A stretch of 64,000 nt of DNA from Bacteroidota bacterium (lineage in GTDB: Bacteria; Bacteroidota; Bacteroidia; Flavobacteriales_D; Crocinitomicaceae), in the NCBI GenBank assembly GCA_016866255.1, contig VGMY01000008.1, forward strand, positions 16,266-80,265, read 5' to 3'. The position numbers were made by a program, and so were the translations under genes. This document shows, piece after piece, positions 1 to 15,358 of this stretch. Positions within the stretch are counted from its first letter, which is position 1, and each line of letters opens with the position of its first letter. A model generated the notes under the pieces. The model searched no databases and was not told where the DNA came from. It saw only the letters and a program-made list of their open reading frames with translations.

Positions 1-3000
1 CTCCGGCTCCAATAATCAACAACAAAAGGAATCCAAACAATACTCTCAAGTATTTTTTATCGGTAAGATAACGGTAATACCATGGGAATTTGGTGCTGAA
101 TTTCTTTAGAGTTTCTCGAACGTTATCGATGTGATATTTGGTAATAAAATGTTCGATTAAGAAATCGTAGGCATTGTGTATTAAATTAACGGGCTTGTGT
201 TTGATGATTTGCGAAAGCTGAAAATCAACCGTTAATTGATAAAGTCCTATCTTTTTTCCTTCGGCGTTGGGAAGATTTTTTACAATGGCCGAAATTTCAT
301 CTTTCGATTTACCCTCCGCAAAACGAATTTCGGAATTTAATTCGTATAATTTTTCGAGGGTTTCCGGTTTATTCAGCGAAAGCCAATAGAAGTATTTTTC
401 GTAGAACGAAGACCTTACCGTATTGGAAACGGGATCATCCCCAAGTGCGTCTACTTTATCCTTGAGTTCCTGCCAGTCGAAAGCCACTGAGCTATTAATC
501 AATTGATTGCATGTAGTAATGTATTGATTTTGGAGTTTCGATTCATTGCCCGTTTCACTCTCTTCCAGAAGCGCTTTAATTTCCTTTCGGAAAAAGGCCA
601 TTCGGTTTTTATAATAGGTCTTAAATCCTGAAAAAACGTCTTTAAGTCTCACTTGGTAATACAGTGGCAGGCGGTCCACCAACGACAAAATGCCGCCCTG
701 TCCAGTAAGCGCTTCGTATTGTTTAAGACTTAATTCAATTTGACTTTCAACATCATTTACCGGCAAAGAAATTTCGTCGGAAATGTTCGGAATAAAGGCA
801 GCGATTTTCTCGCGAAGTGGTGCGGTATCAAACCGATCATCGTATACGGGAACTAATTTTAATTGATTTAGAATTTCCATCACGAGACCCAAGCTTTCCT
901 CCAGTTCTTCGGTATCGTTGAAGTTGATGTACAAACTAATCAACCGTGCCAATTGAAAGATTAATGCGTTCAATCCTAGGATGTATTCGTCTTCCTTGGT
1001 TGCTGGATTTTGGTGACACACCACTTCCATTTGAGCAAAGCGATTTAAGCGAATGAAGAGCATCTCGAGTGAACCTAATTCCTCGAACAGTTTAAGTTCG
1101 TTGATAAAAGGCTCAGGGACGGCTAATAAACCATTGTCTTCAGTTAAGTTAAGGTTTTCGATGTTTTTAATGATCCATCTGGTCTGATCGAACGGTAAAT
1201 TCGGCAAAGATTTTACATCCAAGTCGAGTAAACATTTGATCAACCTTTGACGTTCAATAGACTTGGCACTTGACGAATTCTCGTTCTTATTGGTAGCAGC
1301 AATTTTACCGATAATGTCGTATTTTGCCTTGCGTAAATTTTTGCAATTTTCCCCAAAAAGTTGTTTAACTATTTGTGGTTTATTTTCCGAAAAATAGGTG
1401 GTTAATTTTTCAAGGGATTTACGGGAGTTTGCGTTCAACTGAACATCGAAGATTTGCTTAAAATCGGTCTTTTGGAATTCGCGCAAAGCCTCCATACTCA
1501 ATGCCCCCGGATTGTCCATTTCGAGCAAGTGGAATAAATCGTCCGCATAGTTCTTGATGCTGTTATACGAATACAAGGGTATCTCTTCAAAGAAAGGTTC
1601 ATCCCATTGTTCGTATTCAATGGCATCCACTAGGTCCGAACAGTCGGAAGATATTTTTACGTTACCTGTAAAAAACGTTTGAATGGACTGAGGAGAAAAC
1701 GCCTGACTGAATACGCTCTGATAGGCCAATAAGGAGTAAAACAAATCGGAATTCTTGATGTCCTTTTCGATTTTTATGAAGAGCAACGAAAACGATTTTA
1801 CTGGTAGGCTTTTGCTCGCATCGAGCATGGTTCTTGCGAAGGTCGGATTGATGTAGGGCTCCAACTTTTCAATTAGCTCGTTTTTTTGGTCGTCAAATGC
1901 CCTTGAGTGAAAAAAGGAAAATCCTTCCGCAATGTATTTCGCTAGCAAAGCACTCCAATGACGAACTTTTACAATAAAGGCATACTGGGAAAAGGAAATC
2001 CGATGGAGTTCCATCATGAAATCTTTGATGCGATCCGAATTGATAAATACGTCGTTGCTGGGTTCGGTCACCAATGCTTCAATATGGTTTCCTGCCGTTT
2101 CCACCCATTCTTTAATGCTTTGCACATTTCGTTCGCTTAAGTCATGCGTATGGTCAACATAGGAGTTCAACAGAAATTGAACCTGTTGTACGCCCAATCC
2201 AATGTGGTATGCGTCAATCTGGGCATGCAGTGAGGCATTGTCGTTTGTTTTGTTGAAATAGGGCCGTTCGTTCAATGGAAGTTCTTGCGCCGCTGACAAT
2301 CCTTCTTGCGATTCAACACCTTCCGACGCTAACTTAAACTTTTGACCGTATTCATTCCACAAGCGATAGGCAAAGATGGAGGCATCAAGGGTTTGGTGGT
2401 CCAACAAGCTTCCGGCTCGGGGAACGTCGATGATGGTGAAATTGTGGGTTCCACGTCCATCATACCATGGGTCGTTTCGGTGAAATCCAACCCTCGGGGT
2501 GCCTTCACTGCCTTTTACCATGGACTCGATCGCTGCCGTTAGTTCCGGATCATATTTGTGGGCTAAAAGGCCTTTGATTTCCAAACTGTCTATGTACAAT
2601 CCCAATCCTTTTAGGTGATATGGGAGGTTGGAAGGAACGCTGATGATGGATTTATTAGGATAGTGCAAGCATGTGAGAACAAACCCTCTTTTAAACAAGG
2701 TATTTCGACGATCGCCGCGCACCCAATATTTCCACAGGAAACTCTTGGCCTCTTTTGAAATGATGACTTCAACCTCGTCGAATCCTCTGGTCTCGGCGTT
2801 GTAAAGTTCCACAATTCCAGTAACTGAGTTTTTAAAATCTTCTGCGTACTGATGCGCATCGTTGATGATTTTGTCGCAATGAGGTTTCAGGCTTTCAACC
2901 TCTTCAAAGCCTTCGTTTGTCCAGGGGTTTTCTTCTTTTGCTGTTACCTTTATTACTGCTTCGATGAAAGACAATCCGTCTCGGAGGAGGGTTTCGTTGA

Positions 3001-3520
3001 ACCCTTGCGTAAAGGCAATGCCGTAATCAATGTTGGACGTATGGCTTAACCAGAGCGAAGCAATACCAACGGGATGTTCTGGATCGAGGATGAGTTTTCC
3101 TAAATCCACCATGCTAACATAATCGCAAAATAAGCCATCGTATGCACTGAACAGTTGGCCTTCGAGATACTTTTGAGCAAAATAAACTGCACTTATCGCA
3201 TCCAAATCGGGCAAGAAATGCGTCACAATATGCATTTCATCCTTGCCGAGGCAATGTCCCAGATAGGTTTCCGCATGTTGAACAACAATGGACGCAACGC
3301 ACTGGTTACTGTATTCACAACCGGGCTGATGATGGTCGATAATTCCGGGTTGAAGTAAGTTGCCTGTGTCCAAAATGACCGTCTGATCCGCAGGAAGTTT
3401 CAATTCCACAGCGTTGGGATTGTCCCGCGTACCAGCATTGTATTCTACCTTAAACGTGTTTTCTTCAAGGTCATGAACCGCTTTGGCGCCCGGGGGGATA
3501 AAATGGTAATGAAACTTCAT
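1..3520 (-). CDS. Very large hypothetical protein, N-terminal 1173 aa only (C-terminus lies left of the window). It has N-terminal DHH/DHHA1-like phosphoesterase motifs, a long helical body and a hydrophobic helix at the window edge.
   Basis: Not in the supplied ORF track because no stop lies inside the window. Manual reverse-complement translation from ATG 3520..3518 stays open for 1173 codons down to position 1. An in-frame TAA lies 16 codons upstream with no alternative start between. N-terminus is MKFHYHFIPPGAKAVHDLEE. Motifs: VILDTG-x9-IIDHHQ (DHH codons 3329..3337), THFLPDLDAISA (3188..3220) and DGRGTH (2444..2461). LRVLFGFLLLLIIGAG is encoded at 2..49. No P-loop seen. Confidence 0.8.
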   Translation of the reverse strand, partial: MKFHYHFIPPGAKAVHDLEENTFKVEYNAGTRDNPNAVELKLPADQTVILDTGNLLQPGIIDHHQPGCEYSNQCVASIVVQHAETYLGHCLGKDEMHIVTHFLPDLDAISAVYFAQKYLEGQLFSAYDGLFCDYVSMVDLGKLILDPEHPVGIASLWLSHTSNIDYGIAFTQGFNETLLRDGLSFIEAVIKVTAKEENPWTNEGFEEVESLKPHCDKIINDAHQYAEDFKNSVTGIVELYNAETRGFDEVEVIISKEAKSFLWKYWVRGDRRNTLFKRGFVLTCLHYPNKSIISVPSNLPYHLKGLGLYIDSLEIKGLLAHKYDPELTAAIESMVKGSEGTPRVGFHRNDPWYDGRGTHNFTIIDVPRAGSLLDHQTLDASIFAYRLWNEYGQKFKLASEGVESQEGLSAAQELPLNERPYFNKTNDNASLHAQIDAYHIGLGVQQVQFLLNSYVDHTHDLSERNVQSIKEWVETAGNHIEALVTEPSNDVFINSDRIKDFMMELHRISFSQYAFIVKVRHWSALLAKYIAEGFSFFHSRAFDDQKNELIEKLEPYINPTFARTMLDASKSLPVKSFSLLFIKIEKDIKNSDLFYSLLAYQSVFSQAFSPQSIQTFFTGNVKISSDCSDLVDAIEYEQWDEPFFEEIPLYSYNSIKNYADDLFHLLEMDNPGALSMEALREFQKTDFKQIFDVQLNANSRKSLEKLTTYFSENKPQIVKQLFGENCKNLRKAKYDIIGKIAATNKNENSSSAKSIERQRLIKCLLDLDVKSLPNLPFDQTRWIIKNIENLNLTEDNGLLAVPEPFINELKLFEELGSLEMLFIRLNRFAQMEVVCHQNPATKEDEYILGLNALIFQLARLISLYINFNDTEELEESLGLVMEILNQLKLVPVYDDRFDTAPLREKIAAFIPNISDEISLPVNDVESQIELSLKQYEALTGQGGILSLVDRLPLYYQVRLKDVFSGFKTYYKNRMAFFRKEIKALLEESETGNESKLQNQYITTCNQLINSSVAFDWQELKDKVDALGDDPVSNTVRSSFYEKYFYWLSLNKPETLEKLYELNSEIRFAEGKSKDEISAIVKNLPNAEGKKIGLYQLTVDFQLSQIIKHKPVNLIHNAYDFLIEHFITKYHIDNVRETLKKFSTKFPWYYRYLTDKKYLRVLFGFLLLLIIGAG

Positions 3521-3536
3521 GGTTTGGTTGAGTCGA

Positions 3537-3544
3537 CAAAGGTA
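3537..3544 (-). promoter_or_regulatory. Candidate Bacteroidota sigma-A -7 box (TAccTTTG on the minus strand) for the giant minus-strand gene
   Basis: Exact match to the TAnnTTTG consensus, 16 nt upstream of the ATG at 3520. Confidence 0.35.
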
Positions 3545-3598
3545 GATAAATTGAACAAATAATGATGTTTATGTGGTATTAAGATGGATCAAAATAGG

Positions 3599-3606
3599 TA
3601 TGTTTG
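3599..3606 (+). promoter_or_regulatory. Candidate -7 box (TAtgTTTG) for the HEPN-discoidin gene
   Basis: Exact TAnnTTTG match 14 nt upstream of ATG 3621. It argues for the 3621 start rather than the track's GTG at 3573. Confidence 0.35.
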
Positions 3607-3620
3607 CCTTACAGAATATT

Positions 3621-6600
3621 ATGAACATGAATATCGCGAACCAACTCCCAAAGAACCTTGAGAAAACGATCAGCGATTTAGCGAGGGCACGTGAAAAAGC
3701 CGCCAAACAAAAGTATTTATTGGACCTTGGTGAAAGCCTCGTAATGCACTTATGTTCGTTTGTTTTAGGCGAGTACAAAGAAGCGGGCTTGGTTTCAATC
3801 GAACTTGAGAAGTCGTTTTTAAAGAATGGTAAAAATGTCAGTTTTGGAATTTACCTGGGTTGGCTTCGTGAGTCCTCCAAGTTTTTAAATCAACAAAAGC
3901 ACCCCTCAGAAATTCAAGATCTCTTACACGGATCAAACGAACTTCTTGAATTGTCGAAATTCGTTAAATCCTATGGTGCACTGAAATTGGCGGTAGAGAA
4001 CGATCATACGAATTATGCGGAGCTCATTTCGCAAGCCCTAAAGAATAACCTTGGAAAGGTAAATTTGTTAGAGTTTTTTGATGTTTTTATTCAACTTAGG
4101 AACCGCGTTGCACATCCGCACAAGGAGGTGAAAGGAAAAGTAGTAAGCTGGCCGTTTAGCGAGGAATATTTCGATGCAACAAACCCTTATTTGGAAAGCG
4201 CTTTGAATCAGGTAATTAATGAACTAGGGAAGATTTGGGAGTTTCGTCAGTTTGTGGTGGACAGCAATGAGCAAGGAATGCTTACCTTGATTAGCGAAGA
4301 CAATAACGAACCCATTGAGGTAGCTAAAACGGCTGATTATCCAGAAGGTATTAAGGTATTTGCGGCGAATGACACCGTGTTGCTTTCGGATTGGAAAATG
4401 CTACTTCGCGCGGGGGAGGAAGCCGTTGAGAAAATACGTCAGGAAGAAGAGGAGCTACGAAATAAGGCAACCGTAGAGGACTTGAAACATTCCATTGAGG
4501 CGGCACTAGACGATCAACAAATCAGCCTTGAAGAAATGAATTTCTTTGAGTCGCTTGGAAAAACAAAATTGGGACTTTCCAAAGAGCAAATTAAGCATTT
4601 GATCATGGAGGTAGCTCAAAAAATGGGCATTGAAGATCCCTTTCCTGAGGTAGATAAACGCTTTATTGAGGTGGTCGACCATGCTATAACCACGAAGACT
4701 TACAATGAATTTTTGTTGAAACTTACCGGACAACAATACGGGGTGGATAACGAAACGTTCGATAAGGTATTTTTGGAACGAACCTTTGCCTTGAATGTTG
4801 ACCCGGATGAGGTTCGAAGGAATAAGGTACTGCAGTTTACCTTAGAGGAACTGACCGATTTTCAAGGATTAATGGCAGCCCATAAGTGGTTGATGGGTAT
4901 GGGAGTTTTTAGACACGCAACCAAGGAGAGCATCTTTAAAATAAGGGAAGATTCGTATAAATTCGGCACCAAAGAATATTGGCATCGAACGGCCTTTGCC
5001 GCTTTAGAACATTTCGTTCAAAACCGTTTAAATAAGTTATGCTTGGACGAAGATTCCGAATGGGATACCAAACAAAACAATTGGCAAATTGGCGTTATGA
5101 CGGGGTATGCTTGGTGTACTTTGTATCCTAAGAATCTGCCCAGCAAAAAGATTCTTGCGTTGCATTTTTCGCTTTATTCTTCCGGTGGTGCAGCCATAGG
5201 TTATCTTCCCGATTGGAAAGATTACAAAGACTTGGATAATTATGGACTCCTTCTCAATGTGTTTGTAGAACATTTGAAGTCTTTCGCCATGGAATATGCC
5301 GATGATTTAAAAAAATACCCCAACCTTGTGTTATGGGACAGTTTGAACAATAACACCTATTACTCCTTTACCGAGTCGATGAGCCGTTTTCCTTGGTTTT
5401 ACGACCATTGTTACGGTTTCGATCAAATTCAATTCTACCATAAAGTGGAGGAGATTATTGCTAATCCATCAGTGCTTATCGACAGCTTCGATATCGCGTT
5501 TAATTTGTTTAAAGGGTTGTTTGAAGCGGTCAATCGCGATTATCGCAACATGTTGAACGATTCGTACTTAATTACTGAAAATGAAGCGCTGATTAGGAGT
5601 AAATTAGTCAGTCTTGAGGACCTTTTGACAGAGGTTGGTTTGTCCGGTGCCCCAGAAGAGGACCTTGTTTCAGAACAACCAGCGGAAGAAGAGGAGCGTG
5701 ATAAGGAAAACCAAGATTCAACCGACATCCAAGTTGCAGATGACGGCTTAAAAGGCAGCGTGCATGTTGGGTATTTTGCCCGTGAATTTAAACCAAAAGT
5801 CAAAGGCTATCCTTTGTGCGTGAGTTTTCAAATCAAACAAGACTATTTTAACAACGAACTCAATTATCTAATGTATATTTCATGCGCTGGATATTTGCAA
5901 CCTGAAATCCATGAACCTGTAGAAAGAATCCTTGAGTCCTTGGAAGGACTGTCGTTTGAAAATGCTCGTTTCTACTTTAAACGAAGTAAGTTTTTAGTCC
6001 AATGTAAGGTGGAGGATTTGGAACGATTTGATCCTCGACCCTTAACGGTCTTCTTTTTGAACGCTCTTGCAGAGGCATGTGCAAAATCGTACGTTTCGTT
6101 TCTGGGCTTGAAGTTAACCCAACCTGTGTTATCCCGCTTTGGTAATGCCGTGGTGGATGCATTGGAGGAAATCAATCCGTCACTTCAAAGTCTATTCTCT
6201 AATACCATTACCTGCGAGCGCAATTGGATGAAAGGGTATCGATTCTTGGATTATGTATATTCCGGCAAGGGGGTAGCGCATTGGTTGGGCTGGGGATTGG
6301 AGTTTCAGCAAGATCAAATGATGGCAGGAGTAGTGTTGCACGTCGGAGATTCCCTAAAAGGAGCGCAATTGATGGAACAAATGCACAACAAAGCCAATAT
6401 TGATGCTGCGTGGAAATTGGTAACCAAAGGCGAGGCTTCGTTGAACGATCCTCACTGGATCTTGGGCAATTCTTCGGCAGTCATGACCTCTTCTTCCGAT
6501 TATAACCGCAATTACAAAGCCCACCACGCTTTAATTTCAAACGAAAAAACGTACTGGTGTGCTGCTAAGCAAGACGACAAACAATGGTGGCAAGTGGAAC

Positions 6601-6986
6601 TTCCCGAGGCCATGACCATTTCTCAACTTGTTCTTAAAGGTGCACCTCACGGTAAAAGTTATGTCACACGTTTTAATCTCATGTATTCCGTGGATAAAAA
6701 GAATTGGCAAACGCTCAGTGATTTTAATGGATTGAACGATGGGTTTTCCACCTTAGAACTCACCTTTGAAAGCGCATTCAACGCGAAACTCATTAAAATT
6801 CTTCCAGTAGAATTTGTGGGTTGGCCCGGCATTAGAGTGGACTTTTGGGGTAAAAAAATCGTTCCCTCCAAAATTGAATTGCAGCATTGGGTTCCGGTGA
6901 ACAATGAACAGGAATTAGCAACGGCCGTGGCTGCATTTGAACATAACATCAAGGAGCTTAAAGCCTTTAAAGGCTTGGGTTTATAG
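3621..6986 (+). CDS. Large cytoplasmic protein with an N-terminal HEPN-type (Abi-like) domain, a helical/unknown middle with an acidic linker, and a C-terminal F5/8 type C (discoidin) domain
   Basis: Continuous ORF; the track gives 3573..6986 from a GTG, and in-frame ATGs lie at 3600, 3621 and 3627. VSFGIYLGWLRE starts at 3840. LRNRVAH (an R-x4-H HEPN motif) is at 4098..4115. An acidic low-complexity linker spans about 5646..5747. The C-terminus YWCAAKQDDKQWWQVELPEAMTISQLVLKG...YVTRFNLMYSVDKKNWQTL...AKLIKILPVEFVGWPGIRVDFWG (about 6465..6850) matches the discoidin pattern. No signal peptide and no Walker A motif. Confidence 0.85.
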   Translation: MNMNIANQLPKNLEKTISDLARAREKAAKQKYLLDLGESLVMHLCSFVLGEYKEAGLVSIELEKSFLKNGKNVSFGIYLGWLRESSKFLNQQKHPSEIQDLLHGSNELLELSKFVKSYGALKLAVENDHTNYAELISQALKNNLGKVNLLEFFDVFIQLRNRVAHPHKEVKGKVVSWPFSEEYFDATNPYLESALNQVINELGKIWEFRQFVVDSNEQGMLTLISEDNNEPIEVAKTADYPEGIKVFAANDTVLLSDWKMLLRAGEEAVEKIRQEEEELRNKATVEDLKHSIEAALDDQQISLEEMNFFESLGKTKLGLSKEQIKHLIMEVAQKMGIEDPFPEVDKRFIEVVDHAITTKTYNEFLLKLTGQQYGVDNETFDKVFLERTFALNVDPDEVRRNKVLQFTLEELTDFQGLMAAHKWLMGMGVFRHATKESIFKIREDSYKFGTKEYWHRTAFAALEHFVQNRLNKLCLDEDSEWDTKQNNWQIGVMTGYAWCTLYPKNLPSKKILALHFSLYSSGGAAIGYLPDWKDYKDLDNYGLLLNVFVEHLKSFAMEYADDLKKYPNLVLWDSLNNNTYYSFTESMSRFPWFYDHCYGFDQIQFYHKVEEIIANPSVLIDSFDIAFNLFKGLFEAVNRDYRNMLNDSYLITENEALIRSKLVSLEDLLTEVGLSGAPEEDLVSEQPAEEEERDKENQDSTDIQVADDGLKGSVHVGYFAREFKPKVKGYPLCVSFQIKQDYFNNELNYLMYISCAGYLQPEIHEPVERILESLEGLSFENARFYFKRSKFLVQCKVEDLERFDPRPLTVFFLNALAEACAKSYVSFLGLKLTQPVLSRFGNAVVDALEEINPSLQSLFSNTITCERNWMKGYRFLDYVYSGKGVAHWLGWGLEFQQDQMMAGVVLHVGDSLKGAQLMEQMHNKANIDAAWKLVTKGEASLNDPHWILGNSSAVMTSSSDYNRNYKAHHALISNEKTYWCAAKQDDKQWWQVELPEAMTISQLVLKGAPHGKSYVTRFNLMYSVDKKNWQTLSDFNGLNDGFSTLELTFESAFNAKLIKILPVEFVGWPGIRVDFWGKKIVPSKIELQHWVPVNNEQELATAVAAFEHNIKELKAFKGLGL

Positions 6987-7057
6987 GGGGTGTTGATCAT
7001 TAGATGTTGAATAACTTAAATTTTTAAGTACTTTCGGTGAAACAATTGTATAACGAT

Positions 7058-7543
7058 ATGAATACCCCTCCTCCCGAAGTTCCTAAAAAAGTAGAATTAA
7101 GCAAAGTCGTCATATATTCTCTGGTGGGATTATTGATTGCGGGTTTGATTTTTCTATTAGCTAAGTCATTGTTGGACCAAAAGCGCGACACGGAGCAACA
7201 AGCCAAGGCCTTTAAAGAACAAATGAAAGAATTGAAGTCAGAATTGAAAGCTATGCAACAGAATTATCGAAGCATGACGAATAAGCGCGATTCCTTACAA
7301 GGCTGGGTAGACTATTACACACCAATGCGCGCAGTTATTTTCAATGCAAAGCTAAGAGACCGCGTCCTCGAGATTACGGAGTTTAAGCCTGGAGATGTCG
7401 CTAAATTTAAAGTGGACTCCACCAGTGCAGTTATCGTGGAGGTAAAAGTAGGAGGAAATGACCTCAGTTATTACGTAAATTATTTGGTGAAAAATCGCAA
7501 AGGACAACTTATCGAAGTTTCGCCTTACGAATTGTATCGTTGA
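7058..7543 (+). CDS. Small single-pass membrane protein with a coiled coil and a small C-terminal beta-rich domain (hypothetical)
   Basis: The track ORF starts at GTG 7037; the first ATG is 7058 (MNTPPPEVPKK). TM helix VVIYSLVGLLIAGLIFLLA, then the heptad-like EQQAKAFKEQMKELKSELKAMQQNY, then KPGDVAKFKVDSTSAVIVEVKVGG...LIEVSPYELYR. Same strand as the HEPN gene, 71 nt downstream, with no hairpin between. Confidence 0.6.
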   Translation: MNTPPPEVPKKVELSKVVIYSLVGLLIAGLIFLLAKSLLDQKRDTEQQAKAFKEQMKELKSELKAMQQNYRSMTNKRDSLQGWVDYYTPMRAVIFNAKLRDRVLEITEFKPGDVAKFKVDSTSAVIVEVKVGGNDLSYYVNYLVKNRKGQLIEVSPYELYR

Positions 7544-7585
7544 TGGGGAGGATTAATGGAAATTCAAGCGTTTGAGGTTTTGAGT

Positions 7586-8443
7586 TTAATGCCTCATTAA
7601 CACCTGCTTCGTTCCTTCTTCGATTCGTTCACAGATTTCATCTAAAGGCAGATCGTTGTCATCCCTTCCGAAGGGGTCTTCTATTTCCTCGGCCAATATC
7701 TCCATGGATACCAGGGCATAAAACACAAACGTTGAAATCAATACCGACCAATATTCGAATAATTCTACAAAAGCAAGCGGCATGGTCACTACGTAAATGA
7801 AAATGAATTTTTTGAAAAATAAACTGTAAGAAAATGGAATTGGGGTATTCAAAATTCTTTCGCAAGCCCCTAAGCTGTCGATGAGATTATCTAAATGCCT
7901 ACTGAGTTGTTGCCATTGTATCGAGTCAATTCGGTCGGTGACCCGTAATTCATGCAGTGATTTACGCAGCTCATGCGCAATCCACAACGGTTGATTCCCT
8001 GCTTTTGATGATTCATCCAGTGGAAAGGATAATTCAAGTTTATTGCGTCTTAAATGTTCCTTCATGCTCTTAGAAAAAGCTGTGATAAGTTCCACGAATT
8101 GGCTCCGTTCAGCAGTGTTTAATTCGAGGGAGGAGAGCAGACTTGATAAATTGCGGGTATCATTCACCACTGAACCCCAAAGTTTGCGTCCTTCCCACCA
8201 CCGGTCATAGGCCGTATTCGTTCGAAATACCAAAAGCAATGATATCACAAATCCCAATAAGGAATAGACCGAAGTTAAATTCTTTAATACGGATGAGGTA
8301 GGATAAAAATGCAGTTCCAAGAAAGTGATGATGGCAGTTAATGCGGCAATGTATATAAGCTCTTTCCATAAAATACGAACGGTGTCGCTTTTGTGAAAAG
8401 AAAATATAAACGTCAACCAGCTCTTGGGGTTGTATTTTATCAT
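7586..8443 (-). CDS. Bestrophin/YneE (UPF0187) family anion channel homologue
   Basis: 285 aa with several TM helices. RTNTAYDRWWEGRKLWG and the C-terminal EDPFGRDDNDLPLDEI are typical of bacterial bestrophin homologues. Confidence 0.75.
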   Translation of the reverse strand: MIKYNPKSWLTFIFSFHKSDTVRILWKELIYIAALTAIITFLELHFYPTSSVLKNLTSVYSLLGFVISLLLVFRTNTAYDRWWEGRKLWGSVVNDTRNLSSLLSSLELNTAERSQFVELITAFSKSMKEHLRRNKLELSFPLDESSKAGNQPLWIAHELRKSLHELRVTDRIDSIQWQQLSRHLDNLIDSLGACERILNTPIPFSYSLFFKKFIFIYVVTMPLAFVELFEYWSVLISTFVFYALVSMEILAEEIEDPFGRDDNDLPLDEICERIEEGTKQVLMRH

Positions 8444-9477
8444 TCCTTGATAAAGTGCTTTTTAAGTTTTACCTGATCTTTATTGGTTTCAATAAAATAT
8501 AAACCATTCGAAATATTTCTGAGATTCAACCTCGTGCCTGTGAGTGTAGCTATTTTTTCAACCATTACGTTTTGTCCATAGGCATTAAGCAAGGAGATTT
8601 GTTCGGGAAGAGCGTTTTCAATAATTATATGATCTGTACATGGGTTGGGAAAGATATTTACCGCAGGAAGCGCTTCTTCCTCTATTCCCACCCCAATTCC
8701 ATCTAGTTCCGTCCATCTGAAGATTTTGGGAGCGCCAAGCGTATCGAAACTCATTTCCGCAATGGCCAATTTGCCACCTTTCCCCACCCAAGAATAGCTG
8801 CCGGTAGTGCCCGAGCTCGTGCTCACCAAACTCCAGGTAGGTGGAAATATCGGAAGAGCCCATATGGAATCGGTGTAGTTGTCTGTGGTGTAAATGCGTA
8901 ATACATCGTAGGTTCCTTGCGGTGTGGTGATTTGCCCCCACGCATCGGTGGTATCATGCACCATCGAAGAACGCTTAAAACGTATTTGACTTACTAAGGG
9001 ATTGATTGCCGCTCCGGGTACAATCACATCAATCACGTACAAATCGTTGAAACTTGAACCAAAGGTTCTCGGAAATTGATGCAAGGTTAAATCAGGGTTG
9101 AACACCGCATTGATGATTCCTGAACCTAATAAATCTCCCGAAAATCCTTGAGTGGTGAACGATTGAGCACTTTTGTTAAAGTACAAATAACTCGCGTTGT
9201 CGTTGGTCATGGCCATGTTGGAATTCCCAAATTGATTTGCGCTCGGCGTTGAAGCTACCGATACCACGCTGGTATTCTCCGAGACAACATAGTTGCTAGT
9301 TGCCGTGAAGTTCCACGTCTGGTTCGGTCCGCTGCCTCCCGGACCAGGCAATACCGTCATCGTATCGGATTTTCGCGGAATGTTGTCGCCCACGGAAGGC
9401 ATGTCGTTTTGATCCAAGGTGATTTGGGCACTTAAGGTCCCAGCCATCATTCCAGCAAGCAGTAAAAAAGGTTTCAT
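8440..9477 (-). CDS. Secreted protein with a T9SS C-terminal sorting domain
   Basis: Signal peptide MKPFLLLAGMMAGTLSAQ. The C-terminal ~80 aa (VNIFPNPCTDHIIIE...ISNGLYFIETN) resembles the Por secretion tail. 4-nt overlap with the downstream gene. Confidence 0.7.
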   Translation of the reverse strand: MKPFLLLAGMMAGTLSAQITLDQNDMPSVGDNIPRKSDTMTVLPGPGGSGPNQTWNFTATSNYVVSENTSVVSVASTPSANQFGNSNMAMTNDNASYLYFNKSAQSFTTQGFSGDLLGSGIINAVFNPDLTLHQFPRTFGSSFNDLYVIDVIVPGAAINPLVSQIRFKRSSMVHDTTDAWGQITTPQGTYDVLRIYTTDNYTDSIWALPIFPPTWSLVSTSSGTTGSYSWVGKGGKLAIAEMSFDTLGAPKIFRWTELDGIGVGIEEEALPAVNIFPNPCTDHIIIENALPEQISLLNAYGQNVMVEKIATLTGTRLNLRNISNGLYFIETNKDQVKLKKHFIKE

Positions 9478-9497
9478 AGGTAAAAGTTTGCTTAAAG

Positions 9498-10520
9498 TTA
9501 AGCAATTTTTCGGAATCGATAAACGCCCATGCCAAGCAATGCGAGCAATATCACGGCAAACAACAAGTGGGCAGTCTGAACTAATCCGGGTAGATCAAAA
9601 TAGGCCAATAAGACTCCCGCACTGAGTTCCATGCCTAATACCACAAAAGCCCAACGAATTACCGAAATTTTATCCCCTTGCTCATTCTTCCAGGCTAAAT
9701 AAGCCAGGAGCAGTAACACCAACCAACTGAAACTGCGGTGAACGAAGAATTCTATTCCGAAATAATCGCTCCATGCTTCCCTGCCTAATCCCTGCTTTGT
9801 CAAGGCATCGATGTATTCTCGTACCTGGGTGCCAAGAAACATTTGGTAGAAAGTAATGGCAAACACCGCCCACCAAGTATAGAAGGTCAGCTTGTTGACA
9901 GGAATCTTCACTCCATGCTTCGGCGAAATCCGATACATCACGTAAAGCTGTATGAGTAAAATGACCAGGGCAAGGAATAAATGCACGGTGATTGTCCAAG
10001 GCACCAAGTTCGTGGCCACTACAATGGAACCAAACCATGCCTCCACGGCAATGAGCACGAGGTTGATGGCTGATAGGGTTAACAACCATCGCTTTCGGTA
10101 GAAAAGTACGCACCAAAAGAAACCTGCTAGCATCAAGTTGCCCGCAAGAAATCCGAGCAAACGATTGATGTATTCCGTGTAGGTTCGGGCAGCATTAAAA
10201 GGTTCTTCCTGCAGTAGGGTGGGGTCCTTTTCGATTTTTTGAGCGGTTTCTTCCATCCCAAATCTTCGCAAGAAGGCACAAAACTTCACCGCTTTTTTTG
10301 CGCGTTTCTCACGAAAAATGGATAAATAATTGGAAGGAAGCTGCGTTTCGGCGGTCGGAGGAATCCATTTTCCAAAACATTTTGGCCAATCTGGACATCC
10401 CATACCCGATCCGGTAATGCGCACAAAACTGCCGGCGCAAATCACCAAAAATAAGGCAACTAGGGTAACCCACTGAAAGCGAATAAATCGTTGAGTGTAC
10501 ATCATGCAACAGAACAGCAT
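9498..10520 (-). CDS. ctaA: Heme A synthase (COX15/CtaA family)
   Basis: Polytopic membrane protein with the N-terminal GSGMGCPDWPKCFG motif characteristic of COX15/CtaA. Confidence 0.8.
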   Translation of the reverse strand: MLFCCMMYTQRFIRFQWVTLVALFLVICAGSFVRITGSGMGCPDWPKCFGKWIPPTAETQLPSNYLSIFREKRAKKAVKFCAFLRRFGMEETAQKIEKDPTLLQEEPFNAARTYTEYINRLLGFLAGNLMLAGFFWCVLFYRKRWLLTLSAINLVLIAVEAWFGSIVVATNLVPWTITVHLFLALVILLIQLYVMYRISPKHGVKIPVNKLTFYTWWAVFAITFYQMFLGTQVREYIDALTKQGLGREAWSDYFGIEFFVHRSFSWLVLLLLAYLAWKNEQGDKISVIRWAFVVLGMELSAGVLLAYFDLPGLVQTAHLLFAVILLALLGMGVYRFRKIA

Positions 10521-10539
10521 TTATAACGTTTGCATGGCA

Positions 10540-11286
10540 TCAAAGTTCATTTTTTGAGGTGCCTTCTTTCGAACTCAAATACCGAATCACCTCCGCTGCA
10601 CCATGCAATCCAAACAAAGCTGGCATATAGCTGATGGTACCGTAAAAGGATTTTTTGAACTTGGTTCCGTCGGTCATCTTGAGCGATTTTTTGTCTTGAA
10701 GTTCCGAAGAAAATACCGCCTTAATTCCTCTTAGTGAAGCCCCTTTGCGCTTGATGCGTTTTTTGATGTGCGAACCCAGCTTGCAATTGTGGGTTTCGAC
10801 CAAGTTGACCACTTGCACTGTGGAAGGATCCACTTTCCCGCCGGCTCCCAAATGGGTTATTACCTTGATTTTTTGCTTTTTGCAGCAAAGCAACCACGCA
10901 AGTTTGGGCGATACCGAGTCGATGCAGTCCATTACATAGTCCGGTTGGTATTCGTTGAGCAATTCCCAAACCCTTTCTGGAACTACGAACTCTTCGAGAA
11001 CATTGACTTTTGCGTTGGGATTGATGTCCTTGATGCGCTCAGCTAAAACGACCGCCTTATTTTTTCCGATGGTGGAATCCAAGGCCGTTAGCTGACGGTT
11101 TTTGTTGGTGGGGTCAAAGACGTCCCCGTCAACAAGGGTGAGGGTGCCTACGCCAGCCCGTGCAATGAATTCTCCAGCAAACGATCCAATGCCACCGAGT
11201 CCAACAATCATGACGTGCGATTTCGCCAGTTTTTCAAGTTTTTTTGAACCAATCAACAGTTCCGACCTTTCCAACCAATGATTCAT
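10540..11286 (-). CDS. tcdA: tRNA threonylcarbamoyladenosine dehydratase (ThiF/HesA family)
   Basis: MNHWLERSELLIG..., Rossmann motif VMIVGLGGIGSFAGEFIARAGVGTLTLVDGD. Start placed at ATG 11286, giving an ATGA overlap with the tatD-like stop. The track's 352-aa version extends through the upstream gene. Confidence 0.8.
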   Translation of the reverse strand: MNHWLERSELLIGSKKLEKLAKSHVMIVGLGGIGSFAGEFIARAGVGTLTLVDGDVFDPTNKNRQLTALDSTIGKNKAVVLAERIKDINPNAKVNVLEEFVVPERVWELLNEYQPDYVMDCIDSVSPKLAWLLCCKKQKIKVITHLGAGGKVDPSTVQVVNLVETHNCKLGSHIKKRIKRKGASLRGIKAVFSSELQDKKSLKMTDGTKFKKSFYGTISYMPALFGLHGAAEVIRYLSSKEGTSKNEL

Positions 11287-11897
11287 GGCCCAAAAATAGC
11301 CAAAAAATTCTGTTCGATTTGCTGAGATAAAACCGCAAGATCGAATCCAGCAAGGCTGCAAAAACGCTGGTAAACCCACTGAATCTCTTCGTCCTTGTCG
11401 TCGGTTTCCAACAACAAACGCTTGAGGGGTATTTTGGTCAACAATGGATGCATGGCAGGGTTCGATAATGCCGAGGGACCAATGCTGAGGTATACTGGGG
11501 TTTCTAACAACCGTGGGAATTGTTTTGGTTGGTTGAAGCCGTGCAGAATCCACGGAGTTACTTGATGTGCGTTCTGCAGGGCATAAAACGCTTCCCAAGC
11601 CTGAACGATATGGAAAATAACCGGTTTATGGTGCTTCGCGGCCAGGCATAATTGCTCCTCAAGCACGCTTTGCTGAATTTCCATACTTGGGCCTTTGAGC
11701 CGGTCCAAACCCACCTCGCCCAGGGCTTTGCATGCAGGATGTTCCAAGGCAATTTCCAACGCTGGCAGGAGTGCCGAGTCCGCAAACCAAGGATGTATTC
11801 CTGAGGAATGAAATTGGTTCAGCGGAGCATCGACGGCTTGTACAATGGCGACTTCATGGGAGCGTAAACGGTGGGTATGAACGTTGTAAAAAACCAT
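11283..11897 (-). CDS. TatD-family metal-dependent hydrolase (short form)
   Basis: 204 aa with NVHTH near the N-terminus, GEVGLD, and ETD near the C-terminus. Confidence 0.7.
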   Translation of the reverse strand: MVFYNVHTHRLRSHEVAIVQAVDAPLNQFHSSGIHPWFADSALLPALEIALEHPACKALGEVGLDRLKGPSMEIQQSVLEEQLCLAAKHHKPVIFHIVQAWEAFYALQNAHQVTPWILHGFNQPKQFPRLLETPVYLSIGPSALSNPAMHPLLTKIPLKRLLLETDDKDEEIQWVYQRFCSLAGFDLAVLSQQIEQNFLAIFGP

Positions 11898-11983
11898 GTG
11901 AAAACAAATTTAAGCTCTTGTTAACAAAATTGAAGGAGTCGTTTGAATTTTTGTATATTCGGGCTCAACAAAACTCAATTATT

Positions 11984-13726
11984 ATGGAACAAGCAGCGCA
12001 AAATGGTCACCCAAAAGGGTTGTATCTATTATTTGTAACGGAAATGTGGGAGCGTTTCAGTTATTATGGGATGAGAGCCATTTTAATGCTTTTCATGACG
12101 AAAGCGTTGTTGTTTGACGCTGAATTTGCCTCGGGCCTTTACGGAAATTACACCGGCCTGGTCTACTTAACCCCGCTCATCGGTGGATACATTTCCGATA
12201 GATATTGGGGTAATCGAAAATCCATTTTCGTTGGAGGAATTATTATGGCCATTGGACAATTTTTATTGTTTTTCTCTGCCAGTTCTTTAGGCACTTCAGT
12301 GGCCCCATTATTGTTCTATTTTGGTTTATTGTCATTGATTATTGGAAATGGGTTTTTTAAACCGAATATTTCCACCATGGTCAATCAATTGTACGCACCG
12401 GGGGATAAGCGAGTGGATGGAGCTTTTTCCATTTTTTACATGGGGATCAACCTGGGGGCTTTCTTCTCTCCCTTGGTTTGTGGAACTTTAGCTGAAAAAG
12501 TGGATTACAAGTGGGGATTCCTAGCCGCAGGAATCGGGATGATTATCGGGGTAGTGGTATTCGAATTGTTCAAGAATAAATACATCGTTTCCGCAGATGG
12601 TAGAGTCGTGGGAGGGAAACCGGAGCTTTTAGGAACGCCTGTAGCGGAAAAAAGCAACGAAAATAACGCAGAAAAGCCCTCTAATTATTGGGCCCGAATT
12701 GGCTTGTGGTTAGCGGTGTATGCCGTATTGTGGTTCGTATTCATGCAATTGGTTGGGTTTAATTTTGTATCTACTTTGATTTTTGCTACCTCCATTGCAG
12801 CATCGGGTTTCGTCATAACGGACCCTTCTTTATCCAAAATTGAAAGGTCTAGAATTATTGTCATTTACATTATTGCATTTTTTGTGATTTTCTTTTGGTC
12901 TGCCTTTGAACAAGCAGGGGCTTCTTTAACGCTTTTTGCTGACCAACAGACGGATAGAACCATTTTTAATTGGGAGATGCCAGCATCGTATTTTCAATCG
13001 GTTAATCCATTAGCTATTATCATTTTTGCGCCCTTATTTGCAGTTCTATGGGGATATTTGGGAAAAAGAAACCGTGAGCCGGCAAGTCCTGTTAAACAAG
13101 CGATTGGTCTATTTTTATTGGCGATTGGTTATTTCATCATTGCCGTTGGAGTTTCAGGTGCGGAGGGGTCAACAAAAACCAGCATGTTTTGGTTGTTGAG
13201 CATGTACCTTGTCCATACCTTGGGGGAGCTTTGCCTATCCCCAATTGGACTGTCCATGGTTGCTCGATTGGCACCTCTTCGTTTGGGCTCGTTGTTAATG
13301 GGGATATGGTTCATGAGCAATGCCATGGCCAATGATTTTGCGGGCATGTTGTCTAAACTTTACCCTGAAAAATATGTAAGCGTAGAATTGGTGAAACAGG
13401 AGGAAAACAACTATAAGGTAGAACTGCTTTCCCGAGACAAAAAGCAACAAGACAAACTCCTTGCGGAGGTTGAAAATTTGGGAGGTATGCAATGTGTAGC
13501 TATTTCCTCGGTCGCGTTTTCAGAGATAAAGGATAAAAAATCCCAAGAAACGGCCTATCAGTCTATCACAGCAACCGCAAAAGTTAAGGAGAAGTCGTTC
13601 TTTGGAATGAAAGTGAATTCCTTGTACAGTTTCTTCATGGTGTTTGTGTTCATGGGAGGGGTTGCTGCTGGTTTACTTTACTTATTGCAAAAGAAACTTC
13701 TGGGCATGATGCATGGAATACGTTAA
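11984..13726 (+). CDS. Proton-dependent oligopeptide transporter (POT/PTR2 family), paralogue 1
   Basis: Starts at ATG 11984 (MEQAAQNGHPKGLYLLF). POT signature FVTEMWERFSYYGMR; many TM helices. The track ORF from 11732 overlaps the divergent upstream gene. Confidence 0.85.
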   Translation: MEQAAQNGHPKGLYLLFVTEMWERFSYYGMRAILMLFMTKALLFDAEFASGLYGNYTGLVYLTPLIGGYISDRYWGNRKSIFVGGIIMAIGQFLLFFSASSLGTSVAPLLFYFGLLSLIIGNGFFKPNISTMVNQLYAPGDKRVDGAFSIFYMGINLGAFFSPLVCGTLAEKVDYKWGFLAAGIGMIIGVVVFELFKNKYIVSADGRVVGGKPELLGTPVAEKSNENNAEKPSNYWARIGLWLAVYAVLWFVFMQLVGFNFVSTLIFATSIAASGFVITDPSLSKIERSRIIVIYIIAFFVIFFWSAFEQAGASLTLFADQQTDRTIFNWEMPASYFQSVNPLAIIIFAPLFAVLWGYLGKRNREPASPVKQAIGLFLLAIGYFIIAVGVSGAEGSTKTSMFWLLSMYLVHTLGELCLSPIGLSMVARLAPLRLGSLLMGIWFMSNAMANDFAGMLSKLYPEKYVSVELVKQEENNYKVELLSRDKKQQDKLLAEVENLGGMQCVAISSVAFSEIKDKKSQETAYQSITATAKVKEKSFFGMKVNSLYSFFMVFVFMGGVAAGLLYLLQKKLLGMMHGIR

Positions 13727-13741
13727 TCGAGGTCGTAGCTA

Positions 13742-15358
13742 ATGTTTGGAAAAGACCATCCCAGGGCCCTTTCATTCCTCTTTTTTACCGAAATGTGGGA
13801 ACGTTTTGGGTACTACTTAATGATCGGTATTTTTACCCTTTACCTGAAAGACGTCGATGCGGGTTTTGGCCTCACTGAAAACGAGGCTTCCGACCTGTAC
13901 GGGACGTTTATAGCACTGGTATTTCTCACGCCCTTTATTGGAGGTCTTTTAGCAGACCGCCTTATTGGATATCGAAAAGCCATTTTTCTAGGAGGAATAA
14001 TGATGGGAGTAGGGTATTGTGTTATGGCCCTTCATTCTTTGAGTGCCTTGTACCTTGCTATGTTTTTAGTCATTCTCGGAAACGGTTTCTTTAAACCGAA
14101 CATTTCCACCTTGTTGGGGAATGTATACAACGGGGATGAGTTCAAGGAGAAAAAAGACGCCGGGTATAATATCTTCTATATGGGGATCAACATTGGTGCT
14201 TTTGTTTGCAATTTTTTTGGGGCAGTTCTGTTCAATATCTACGGTTGGTATGCCGCTTTTTTGGCGGCAGGAGTTGGCATGTTCATTGGCATTTTCATCT
14301 TTTGGTGGGGTACTTCCCATTATCGGCACGCAGATGTAATAAAACCGGTAGCGCCGACCGACATGTCTTTGACGAGAATTTTCAGCTTGGTTTTGCTTCC
14401 TGCTTTGATTTTTGGTTTAATTCCCTTGACTTTCAACGAGCCATTAGTAAGCTCTAAAACAACGGATTGTTTTCTTTTTGGTTGCATTCCTGTCTTATTT
14501 TTTTATGGCCGTTTATGGTATAAATCTCCTGCCGAGGAGCGACAGCCCATTGCTGCTATGCTGGCTATTTTTGCCGTGGTTATTGCTTTTTGGGCCGTGT
14601 TCAAACAAAACGGTTCAACCCTCAATACCTGGGCTAATAACTACACAAATCGTGAAGTACCTGCCCTTATTGAACCAACGGCCAATGCTTTAAGGCTCGC
14701 TGAAAAAATTCAATTTGTTAAGGATTCAGTGATTCCAACCGATGCCCAATTTCGAAAATTAGGAAACCAAAAAGTCATCGGCTATCCGGATTATTTTAAG
14801 AATCTTCCAGCTTCTAAACTTCCGGACGAAGGAACATCCATTGCTGCTTTTAATACGAATTTGTTCCAATCGGTCAATCCATTTTGGGTTATTATTTTTA
14901 CACCGCTGGTTGTGGCTTTTTTCACCTTTCTGCGTTCTCGTAAGAAAGAACCCAGTACACCAACGAAAATTGCGTTTGGGCTGCTCATTTCCGCCTTGTC
15001 GTGTCTTGTTATGGTAGGGGCAGTGTATGCGAGCAATAACGGCGCAGAGAAATCCTCAGCATGGTGGTTCATTGCCAGTTATGCAGTCATTACCATTGGC
15101 GAATTGTTTTTGAGCCCAATGGGCCTTTCCTTAGTTTCTAAACTAAGCCCACCAAGGTTGACCGCTTTAATGATGGGAGGGTGGTTTTTGGCTACCTCGA
15201 TAGGAAATAAACTCTCAGGAGTTTTAAGTTCTTTGTGGGACTCGTACGACAATAAGGTTGATTTTTTCTACGTGAACGCTTTATTGCTTGGCGCTTCTGC
15301 CTTGTTACTCTTTTCATTATTGAAATGGTTGAACAAAATCTTCAAGAATTACGCGTAG
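13742..15358 (+). CDS. Proton-dependent oligopeptide transporter (POT/PTR2 family), paralogue 2
   Basis: FFTEMWERFGYYLM signature and polytopic. Lies 15 nt downstream of paralogue 1. Confidence 0.85.
   Translation: MFGKDHPRALSFLFFTEMWERFGYYLMIGIFTLYLKDVDAGFGLTENEASDLYGTFIALVFLTPFIGGLLADRLIGYRKAIFLGGIMMGVGYCVMALHSLSALYLAMFLVILGNGFFKPNISTLLGNVYNGDEFKEKKDAGYNIFYMGINIGAFVCNFFGAVLFNIYGWYAAFLAAGVGMFIGIFIFWWGTSHYRHADVIKPVAPTDMSLTRIFSLVLLPALIFGLIPLTFNEPLVSSKTTDCFLFGCIPVLFFYGRLWYKSPAEERQPIAAMLAIFAVVIAFWAVFKQNGSTLNTWANNYTNREVPALIEPTANALRLAEKIQFVKDSVIPTDAQFRKLGNQKVIGYPDYFKNLPASKLPDEGTSIAAFNTNLFQSVNPFWVIIFTPLVVAFFTFLRSRKKEPSTPTKIAFGLLISALSCLVMVGAVYASNNGAEKSSAWWFIASYAVITIGELFLSPMGLSLVSKLSPPRLTALMMGGWFLATSIGNKLSGVLSSLWDSYDNKVDFFYVNALLLGASALLLFSLLKWLNKIFKNYA

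Follow-up and report, generated by a model that had tools for sequence, protein, structure and literature searches.

A predicted cytoplasmic protein of freshwater Flavobacteriales that joins a probable HEPN-type ribonuclease domain to a discoidin domain, and the membrane-protein genes found beside it

The window analyzed here, a stretch of 64,000 nucleotides (nt) of contig VGMY01000008.1 (positions 16,266 to 80,265, forward strand; assembly GCA_016866255.1) from a member of the Crocinitomicaceae in the Bacteroidota, contains a gene (3621..6986, plus strand) whose product joins a probable HEPN-type ribonuclease (RNase) domain at its N-terminus to a discoidin (F5/8 type C) domain near its C-terminus. 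We give a probability of about one half to the reading that this gene encodes the cytoplasmic component of a conflict module of the anti-invader, abortive-infection type, in which an immune-type RNase stands under a variable C-terminal sensor. The gene is one intact open reading frame (ORF) of 1,121 residues plus stop. About 90 clusters of full-length homologues (all unannotated), the invariance of three motif residues (R160, N161 and H165) and a dN/dS of 0.04-0.26 across every domain indicate that it is more than a chance ORF, and the purifying selection acting on all of its domains indicates that it is functional.

Residues 1-206 (3621..4238, plus strand) form an all-alpha domain that is probably a HEPN RNase domain of the RiboL-PSP or AbiD/AbiF-like type. 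An initial annotation of this DNA had drawn attention to a two-part signature in this region, and both parts lie where it had placed them: VSFGIYLGWLRE occupies residues 73-84 (3837-3872, with its SFG beginning at 3840) and FIQLRNRVAHPH residues 156-167, with 86 residues separating S74 from R160. The second part contains an R-x4-H motif, R160-N-R-V-A-H165 (4098..4115, plus strand; R160 at 4098 and H165 at 4113-4115). The arginine and histidine on which that annotation hinged are, together with N161, invariant in 88 aligned homologues down to 28% identity; among 58 remote relatives the histidine is again invariant, and the arginine and asparagine are at least 90% conserved. In an AlphaFold2 (AF2) model of residues 1-440 (pLDDT 87), residues 11-206 make up an all-helical domain, with extra helices at 99-140, where inserts are expected, and helix 149-164 has the motif at its end, with a hairpin and then a helix at 181-201 beyond it. 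This modelled position agrees with the placement of the Rx4-6H motif reported in a survey of the HEPN superfamily, at the end of a helix and ahead of the loop to the next one (PMC3710099).

We scanned the isolated N-terminal 212 residues of 19 diverse family members against Pfam. Co-linear matches to PF18735 (RiboL-PSP HEPN) were found in 14 of them, the best spanning profile positions 12-179 of 191, and a few members gave weaker matches to HEPN_MAE_28990, HEPN_Swt1 and HEPN_Apea. In PADLOC, the N-terminal domain has weak matches, mostly to HEPN-bearing models (Cas13b, 4e-6; AbiD, 1e-3; CARF_HEPN; Csx1; Cas13-ApeA). The earlier description of the domain as an Abi-like HEPN therefore stands in part: the HEPN-type motif, the PF18735 similarity and the single PADLOC match to AbiD agree with it, whereas Abi_2 (PF07751) and DUF4145 (PF13643) had no Pfam match at E<=10 among the 19 members and Foldseek returned no HEPN structure. 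As RiboL-PSP HEPN domains are distantly related to AbiD/AbiF (PMC3710099), the Abi-like impression was nevertheless close. Membership of the N-terminal domain in the HEPN superfamily is quite likely in our view, at a level short of curated significance.

The second signature domain is unambiguous in the profile searches. Residues 955-1064 (6483..6812, plus strand) match Pfam PF00754 at E=2.4e-21, with 76.6 bits against a curated cut-off of 28.2, which bears out the earlier assignment of the last ~130 residues to a discoidin domain. The conserved W...QW.Q.(D/E)L core is present as a WxAxxxxxxQWWQVEL motif, in which QWWQVEL corresponds to residues 988-994 (6582-6602). When compared with the PDB, the family profile matches the C domains of factors VIII and V, neuropilin b1, lactadherin, and discoidin-1 and -2 of Dictyostelium (down to ~1e-45). 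Residues 940-1121 contain a single cysteine (C980), whose position is not conserved in the family consensus; therefore, the flanking disulfide of animal discoidin domains is absent. The protein ends in a tail of 46 residues (6846..6983, plus strand) whose last residues are semi-conserved (IxxIKxxFxGxxGx) and which is not a sorting domain of the type IX secretion system (T9SS).

The initial annotation had also regarded the protein as intracellular and had named export, by a cleaved signal peptide or a T9SS tail, as what would make the discoidin domain an ordinary extracellular one. Neither was detected. The polar N-terminus belongs to the helical domain, and there is no signal peptide; no 19-residue window reaches a Kyte-Doolittle score of 1.6 from either of two candidate start codons (maximum 1.29), so that no transmembrane (TM) helix is indicated; and neither Por_Secre_tail (PF18962) nor any other export domain was found at E<=1 in Pfam and NCBIfam scans. 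Pfam, NCBIfam and PADLOC scans of the full-length protein returned the discoidin domain plus noise only (CysT, AriA). The absence of a signal peptide, a TM helix and a T9SS C-terminal domain supports a cytoplasmic location. Two genes lie just downstream on the minus strand (7586-9477), one for a bacterial channel of the bestrophin family (E=9e-75) and one for a T9SS cargo protein that carries a Por_Secre_tail (8440-9477). They are ordinary neighbours, and the second one establishes that this genome uses T9SS sorting tails, which the HEPN-like/discoidin protein lacks.

Beyond the family of full-length homologues, the N-terminal domain belongs to a small superfamily with varied architectures; an exhaustive HMMER search with its profile gave only 116 matches at E<=0.001 among 1.84 billion representative proteins. 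One group of relatives, 600-960 residues long, keeps the HEPN-like domain, a small beta-barrel, the coiled coil and the core of a middle domain (domain A, described below) and lacks the discoidin domain. On three of the four contigs of this group that we examined, the gene adjoins one for a large AAA_16/TPR (STAND-like) protein; these large proteins are homologous to one another, and in one case the two genes abut. A second group has only the N-terminal domain in common with the family. Among these, the domain is the N-terminus of an NB-ARC+TPR protein (P0161) and of an AAA_16+TPR protein (P0194), and the N-terminal slot of STAND proteins is the usual position of the effector. Other fusions combine it with a protein kinase, with type I/IIG restriction-modification domains (including a methylase), with an FGE-sulfatase domain, which has a lectin fold, and with DUF2461; in the 738-residue protein P0175, the HEPN-like domain occupies residues 493-638 and a DUF2461 match lies N-terminal.

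Our scan of 185,579 species genomes (two patterns, one genome per species) found 28 loci that encode the family, most of them in freshwater metagenome-assembled genomes (MAGs) of the Flavobacteriales/Crocinitomicaceae, several of which have inconsistent taxon labels. Conservation is distributed unevenly along the protein. Mean pairwise identity is 0.47 in the HEPN-like domain, 0.50 in the coiled-coil/helical region and 0.41 in domain A, and falls to 0.34 in the discoidin domain, 0.26 in the second middle domain (domain B) and 0.16 in the linker between A and B. The C-terminal part has, moreover, been exchanged between paralogues. Two syntenic loci, L001 and L039, contain tandem copies from two paralogue lineages, a and b (10001-13366 and 13519-16875 in L001; 29-1726 and 1761-5159 in L039). 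In L001, the first ~1,050 nt of the two copies are 100% identical at the DNA level, after which identity drops abruptly to ~50%. The b copy of L039 keeps its own HEPN domain, only 35% identical to the a type, while its domains A, B and discoidin are 88-95% identical to those of the L001 b copy; accordingly, gene conversion best explains why the 5' third of the two L001 copies is identical, an assembly artefact behind the exact repeat being another possible cause.

The gene in the window resembles both lineages. In its N-terminus and domain A it is of the a type (65-76% identity to a, 41-43% to b), whereas in its discoidin domain and tail it is of the b type (85-90% identity to b, 41-42% to a). 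As judged from these identities, it is most likely an a/b hybrid produced by recombination between tandem paralogues, and the six-fold variation of dS along the gene in the comparison with its relative in L004 confirms that it is a mosaic. Two long contigs end within the gene, that of L039 (24 kb, position 1-29) and that of L040 (287 kb, position 1), a pattern that agrees with the breaking of metagenome assemblies at repeated or polymorphic segments. Two proteins that at one point were candidates for orphan C-terminal discoidin cassettes, P0260 and P0263, were rejected as truncations at contig ends.

From these features we infer an arrangement in which the conserved N-terminal HEPN-like domain would act as the effector RNase, with two copies needed for each active site, as in other HEPN enzymes, and in which the small beta-barrel and the coiled coil would assist RNA binding and dimerization. 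Domains A and B, together with the discoidin domain, would form the regulatory and sensing part and keep the nuclease off, and a cue of the glycan, lipid or protein type, present in the cytoplasm or on the inner side of the membrane, would release it on binding to the lectin-fold domain. A membrane partner would complete the module, either the DHH-like protein c4 with its six TM helices or, in other lineages, the two-TM protein c2 (~440 residues) plus the ~160-residue protein c3. The role of the discoidin domain as a sensor that controls the nuclease is likewise what we infer, and the idea is consistent with the contrast between conserved N-terminal and variable, recombining C-terminal modules, with relatives that have STAND/TPR modules or another lectin fold (FGS) in the sensor position, and with published predictions of intracellular lectin sensors (PMC8195603). 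The relatives that have nothing in the place of the discoidin domain, and a gene for a STAND-like NTPase beside them, also fit the discoidin domain as the recognition element.

The gene for c4 (2..3520, minus strand) is divergent from the HEPN-like/discoidin gene and continues past the left end of the window, for which reason it is missing from the program-made list of ORFs; the window holds its N-terminal 1,173 residues. An interpretation of this upstream region as RNA was rejected on finding that it is this minus-strand gene. Full-length orthologues have 1,311-1,430 residues, with a DHH-like domain at the N-terminus, six TM helices at the C-terminus and a long helical region in between, and the family comprises ~60 clusters, all unannotated. 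Similarity to DHH proteins is weak: PF01368 is matched at E=0.05-0.08, three distant members carry a precomputed PF01368 match, and the c4 profile meets the DHH protein 4py9 in the PDB at motif I with E=0.63 only. The putative metal ligands D51, D62-H63-H64, H101, D105, D107 and D139 are at least 90% conserved; the motifs that they form (D, DHH and H..PD.D) come in an unusual order. A possible identity of c4 as a STAND NTPase was rejected, as it lacks a P-loop and shows no similarity to the STAND proteins encoded beside the shorter relatives.

The c4 gene lies directly beside the HEPN-like/discoidin gene in 12 loci, whose HEPN-like/discoidin proteins are 28% to 100% identical, and in three arrangements: divergent (the window, L001, L004-L008 and L010), c4 first (L014, L037 and L038), or c4 second (L036, where the protein is 28% identical to that of the window). 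That the adjacency survives rearrangement over such divergence is strong evidence of a functional linkage. In 13 other loci (L002, at 8186-9983, L003, L011-L013, L021-L023, L025-L027, L029 and L030), c4 is absent and a gene pair, c2-c3, is beside or near the HEPN-like/discoidin gene, usually in the operon order c2-c3 followed by that gene. The larger protein, c2 (~440 residues), combines a coiled coil with two TM helices at its C-terminus; c3 is shorter, with ~160 residues, and both are unannotated. The two partner sets never occur together in the loci compared. No similarity was detectable among c2, c3 and c4 or between any of them and the PDB, and c2 and c3 are also without a Pfam match. Two loci, L016 and L017, have full 10-kb flanks without either set. 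L017 and L031 encode another upstream protein with a pair of C-terminal TM helices, c53, for which no relationship to c2 or c4 was detectable.

Other genes recur around the module. A SIR2_2 (PF13289) gene lies directly upstream of c2-c3 and the HEPN-like/discoidin gene in some loci (L002, at 7349-8176, L003, L022 and L026), and further upstream of it are genes for an 861-residue leucine-rich repeat (LRR) protein and a DUF4116 protein; these SIR2_2, LRR and DUF4116 surroundings look like a defence-island context. An outer-membrane beta-barrel gene is found near the module in 18 loci, in varied orientation: a DUF481 protein in 16 of them (for instance, L001 at 4837-5643, where it overlaps c4 by 11 nt, and L002 at 13761-14567), BBP2 in L036 (8344-9441) and Phenol_MetA_deg in L037 (5053-5850). 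In three loci, a gene of the Endonuclease_NS family (DNA/RNA non-specific endonuclease, E=1e-57, with an N-terminal hydrophobic segment) is directly downstream of the homologue (L018 at 5247-6095, L019 at 3600-4448, L025 at 13324-14172). In the window, an ORF of 168 residues (7037-7543, plus strand) begins 50 nt 3' of the gene; inspection by eye suggests a hydrophobic segment at its N-terminus and, after it, a stretch like a coiled coil, and one orthologue has a weak DUF8429 match. It is kept only in the closest relatives (L001, L004, L005 and L040) and, therefore, is probably not a core part of the module.

Several observations tell against a conflict module with a HEPN effector. The best PF18735 matches (E=3e-5 to 9e-5) are sub-threshold, the top one reaching 24.4 bits against a gathering threshold of 28.4, and the window protein itself has no match to a HEPN profile in Pfam. 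A sequence profile of the N-terminal domain found no match in the PDB, and a Foldseek search of the 440-residue model against the PDB and BFVD found no HEPN structure and nothing at E<=0.001, this multidomain model being probably a poor choice of query. Apart from AriA (E=0.027 over the coiled coil, probably coiled-coil noise), the full-length protein matches no defence model in PADLOC-DB v2. No relatives were found in phage, plasmid and IMG/VR collections, and the family is known solely from MAGs of uncultured freshwater Flavobacteriales and from metagenome contigs. In the lineage of the window, the gene occupies a stable chromosomal site amid housekeeping genes (COX15, ThiF, TatD, PTR2), with no obvious mobile island, and domain-averaged dN/dS gives no indication of positive selection. 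Finally, the recurrent outer-membrane beta-barrel gene is unaccounted for by a purely cytoplasmic immune sensor.

Part of this evidence favours a role of the module at the envelope that has nothing to do with immunity, which we consider unlikely, though it is the alternative that survives best. Here, the discoidin domain would tether the protein to the inner membrane through an anionic lipid or a lipid-linked glycan, and, together with c4 and the beta-barrel protein, it would take part in stress signalling, in the homeostasis of the envelope or in the turnover of RNA at the membrane. The C2 domains of factors V and VIII and lactadherin bind phosphatidylserine, and it is lipid-binding C domains of just these proteins (factors VIII and V, lactadherin) that the discoidin profile matches best in the PDB. 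The recurrent partners are all membrane proteins (six TM helices in c4, two in c2, and two in c53 of L017 and L031), the beta-barrel gene adjoins the module in its 18 loci and overlaps c4 in L001, and both the stable position among housekeeping genes and the purifying selection on every domain would suit such a role. For a generic anchor, however, a difference of ~58% between tandem paralogues and exchange as a cassette would both be unexpected; the distribution of the family is very narrow and patchy (28 loci among the 185,579 species genomes); the N-terminal domain recurs in STAND NTPase and restriction-modification architectures; and some close relatives have no discoidin domain at all (P0063, P0064 and the group of 600-960 residues). 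It is also conceivable, if distinctly doubtful, that the protein, c4 and the beta-barrel protein make up a previously undescribed envelope-spanning surveillance system. The discoidin domain would then sense a cue of glycan or lipid nature (a perturbed membrane, a lipid-linked sugar intermediate or an invader molecule that carries a modification, for example) and switch on the HEPN RNase, cassette recombination between paralogues would diversify its specificity and would have produced the hybrid gene of the window, and c4 might make or destroy a nucleotide signal, in the manner of CRISPR signalling of the CorA/NrN type.

A different objection concerns the nuclease itself. The N-terminal domain could have the HEPN-like shape and motif without being a nuclease and use R, N and H for ligand binding, the protein being a scaffold or regulator of a DHH-like membrane enzyme; there are HEPN-superfamily proteins that bind nucleotides or substrates and do not cleave them. 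All HEPN profile matches being sub-threshold, the lack of a structural match to catalytic HEPN proteins and the retention of DHH-type metal-ligand residues in c4, which could be the only enzyme of the pair, would all agree with this, as would the existence of non-catalytic members of the superfamily that lack the motif residues (PMC3710099). Those non-catalytic families, however, are without a conserved Rx4-6H motif (PMC3710099), whereas here the three residues are invariant to 28% identity and kept in remote relatives. In addition, the domain fills the N-terminal effector position of STAND proteins, and a barrel resembling nucleic-acid-binding folds comes next in the chain; accordingly, we regard this alternative as quite improbable. 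The least likely rival, a bacteriocin-like released toxin whose HEPN domain kills, whose discoidin domain binds receptors of target cells and whose membrane and outer-membrane neighbours handle export or immunity, could draw on those neighbours, on the receptor-binding-style variability and cassette exchange at the C-terminus, and on the lack of a signal peptide, colicins being released by lysis or through pores, but is very improbable, as there is no export signal, T9SS tail or linked secretion-system gene, no conserved small immunity-type gene (the 168-residue ORF occurs in the closest relatives only and c3 only with c2), a conserved effector end and a variable C-terminal end that are the opposite of polymorphic toxins, in which the toxin end varies and the delivery end is kept, and a pairing of relatives with STAND NTPases, which are intracellular switches.

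Returning to the protein as we read it, as an RNase under a C-terminal sensor, the region that follows the N-terminal domain contains several modules. Residues 209-255 (4245..4385, plus strand) form a five-stranded small beta-barrel of the cold-shock/S1/SH3-like type, identified in the AF2 model and with Foldseek. It accounts for the only Foldseek matches of the N-terminal model (RNase II/R, eIF5A, the S1 domain of NusA and phage CspC; local probability up to 0.99), and from this likeness it may bind nucleic acid. Next (4416..4910, plus strand) is a long helix or coiled coil at residues 266-298, which leads into a helical domain at 303-430; no stretch of the family is better conserved, and this one is a candidate region for dimerization.

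The middle of the protein consists of two alpha/beta domains. Domain A (residues ~451-672, 4971..5636, plus strand) has a conserved WQIGxMTxYAW...YPK core, which is common to the relatives without a discoidin domain, and domain B (residues ~711-927, 5751..6401, plus strand) is the fastest-evolving globular part. Between them lies an acidic linker of variable length (residues 676-709, 5646..5747, plus strand; 14 D/E and 2 K/R in 34 residues), predicted to be disordered (pLDDT <50 at residues 678-700); the initial annotation had located this linker correctly, as splitting the two regions. In a model of residues 430-950 (pLDDT 86, pTM 0.84), domains A and B pack together. Foldseek gave one credible match for this model, to 2a8e (Bacillus subtilis YktB, DUF1054; probability 0.99, TM-score 0.49 target-normalised, E=0.036), which falls to either domain A or domain B; many low-probability kinase-like matches were not trusted. 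Sequence profiles of the middle region have no match in Pfam and the PDB, hhalign detected no relationship of domains A and B to each other or to the DUF2461-bearing relative P0175, and a homology search with the middle-region profile recovered nine family fragments only. DUF2461 and DUF1054 may be related folds. The small beta-barrel and the YktB-like middle domain, like the conserved partner genes and the paralogue mosaicism, are features that were absent from the initial annotation.

As for the start of the gene, some gene callers use an alternative in-frame GTG at 3573 (P0001, 1,137 residues), and the conserved methionine of the homologues corresponds to 3627. A TATGTTTG box at 3599..3606 (plus strand), 15 nt 5' of the ATG at 3621 and inside the 100-nt divergent intergenic region, matches the Bacteroidetes -7 promoter consensus, TAnnTTTG. 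Its position argues against the GTG at 3573, which is probably not used. If TATGTTTG serves as a -7 box, it would imply a very short leader. Scans of the locus for sigma-70 promoters and terminators stayed at background level, Rfam gave no match over 1-9000, and no tRNA genes were found in the window.

Lectin-fold intracellular sensors in bacterial immunity have been predicted from genomics, and the protein described here would be a compact, single-polypeptide case with a classical discoidin domain and a HEPN-like effector. Natural comparators exist in the discoidin-less relatives beside STAND NTPases and in the tandem paralogues with swapped C-terminal modules, both suited to domain-swap and ligand work. 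The analysis also defines families that were unannotated, namely the N-terminal HEPN-like subtype, the giant DHH-like membrane protein c4, c2 and c3. If the partner linkage reflects function, a cytoplasmic RNase would be connected to the cell envelope in abundant freshwater Bacteroidota, the phage defences of which are poorly known.

The N-terminal domain is most readily compared with the RiboL-PSP-HEPN (PF18735) and AbiD/AbiF families. Like these, it is an all-alpha domain of ~200 residues with an invariant R-N-x3-H motif that, in the model, ends the third core helix, and the similarity to PF18735 in 14 of the 19 members is co-linear and accompanied by one PADLOC match to AbiD. It differs in scoring below the cut-off, in having no L-PSP fusion, no ParB neighbour and no Abi_2 or DUF4145 match in Pfam, and in being embedded in a protein of 1,121 residues with a barrel, a coiled coil, two alpha/beta domains and a discoidin domain. 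The same domain fills the effector slot of STAND (Avs/NLR-like) NTPases of the NB-ARC+TPR and AAA_16+TPR types, whereas the window protein has neither an NTPase domain nor a TPR array, and c4 has neither a P-loop nor STAND similarity. The discoidin domain has clear sequence-profile homology to eukaryotic-type C domains (C1/C2 of factors V and VIII, C2 of lactadherin, neuropilin b1 and the Dictyostelium discoidins), and it differs from them in its intracellular location and in the absence of the flanking disulfide cysteines.

A parallel with the ancillary signalling of type III CRISPR systems is only a lead. The cytoplasmic domain of c2, its coiled coil and its two C-terminal TM helices give it a topology that resembles CorA's. 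In type III systems, the HEPN RNases Csm6/Csx1 are found with a DHH-DHHA1 nuclease associated with the membrane, and CorA lies next to, or is fused with, DHH nucleases (reviewed in PMC8284326). The module would share with these systems a HEPN-type RNase linked to a membrane-bound phosphoesterase of the DHH family (c4, with its weak DHH assignment), and it differs from them in having no CARF domain, cas genes or cyclase, c2 being without detectable similarity to CorA.

The last comparison is with the conflict systems that Kaur, Iyer, Burroughs and Aravind (eLife 2021; PMC8195603) predicted in prokaryotes, where a TIR, kinase, caspase or STAND domain is fused to a lectin-fold domain, NPCBM (of discoidin-like fold) or FGS, as an intracellular sensor. 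In the prokaryotic-defence literature that we searched, HEPN and discoidin are mentioned together only in this paper, which describes other fusions and not a HEPN-discoidin one. The window protein resembles these systems as a cytoplasmic protein in which a C-terminal lectin fold of the discoidin class is combined with a predicted effector and the sensor part is variable; its relatives are linked to STAND NTPases, and one remote relative has an FGE-sulfatase (FGS) domain. The differences are that the lectin fold is a classical F5/8 type C domain (PF00754) and not NPCBM, that the effector is HEPN-like, that the host is a unicellular freshwater flavobacterium and not a multicellular actinobacterium or cyanobacterium, and that the partners are membrane proteins instead of AP-ATPases or caspases, with no death-like adaptor domains detected. 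The STAND linkage is confined to the relatives, whereas the discoidin-bearing proteins adjoin c4 or c2-c3. The protein is also like known immune proteins that carry sensor and effector in one chain. A cytoplasmic effector combined with a lectin-fold sensor is a known type of system; the partner families are new, and the record of module exchange is clear.

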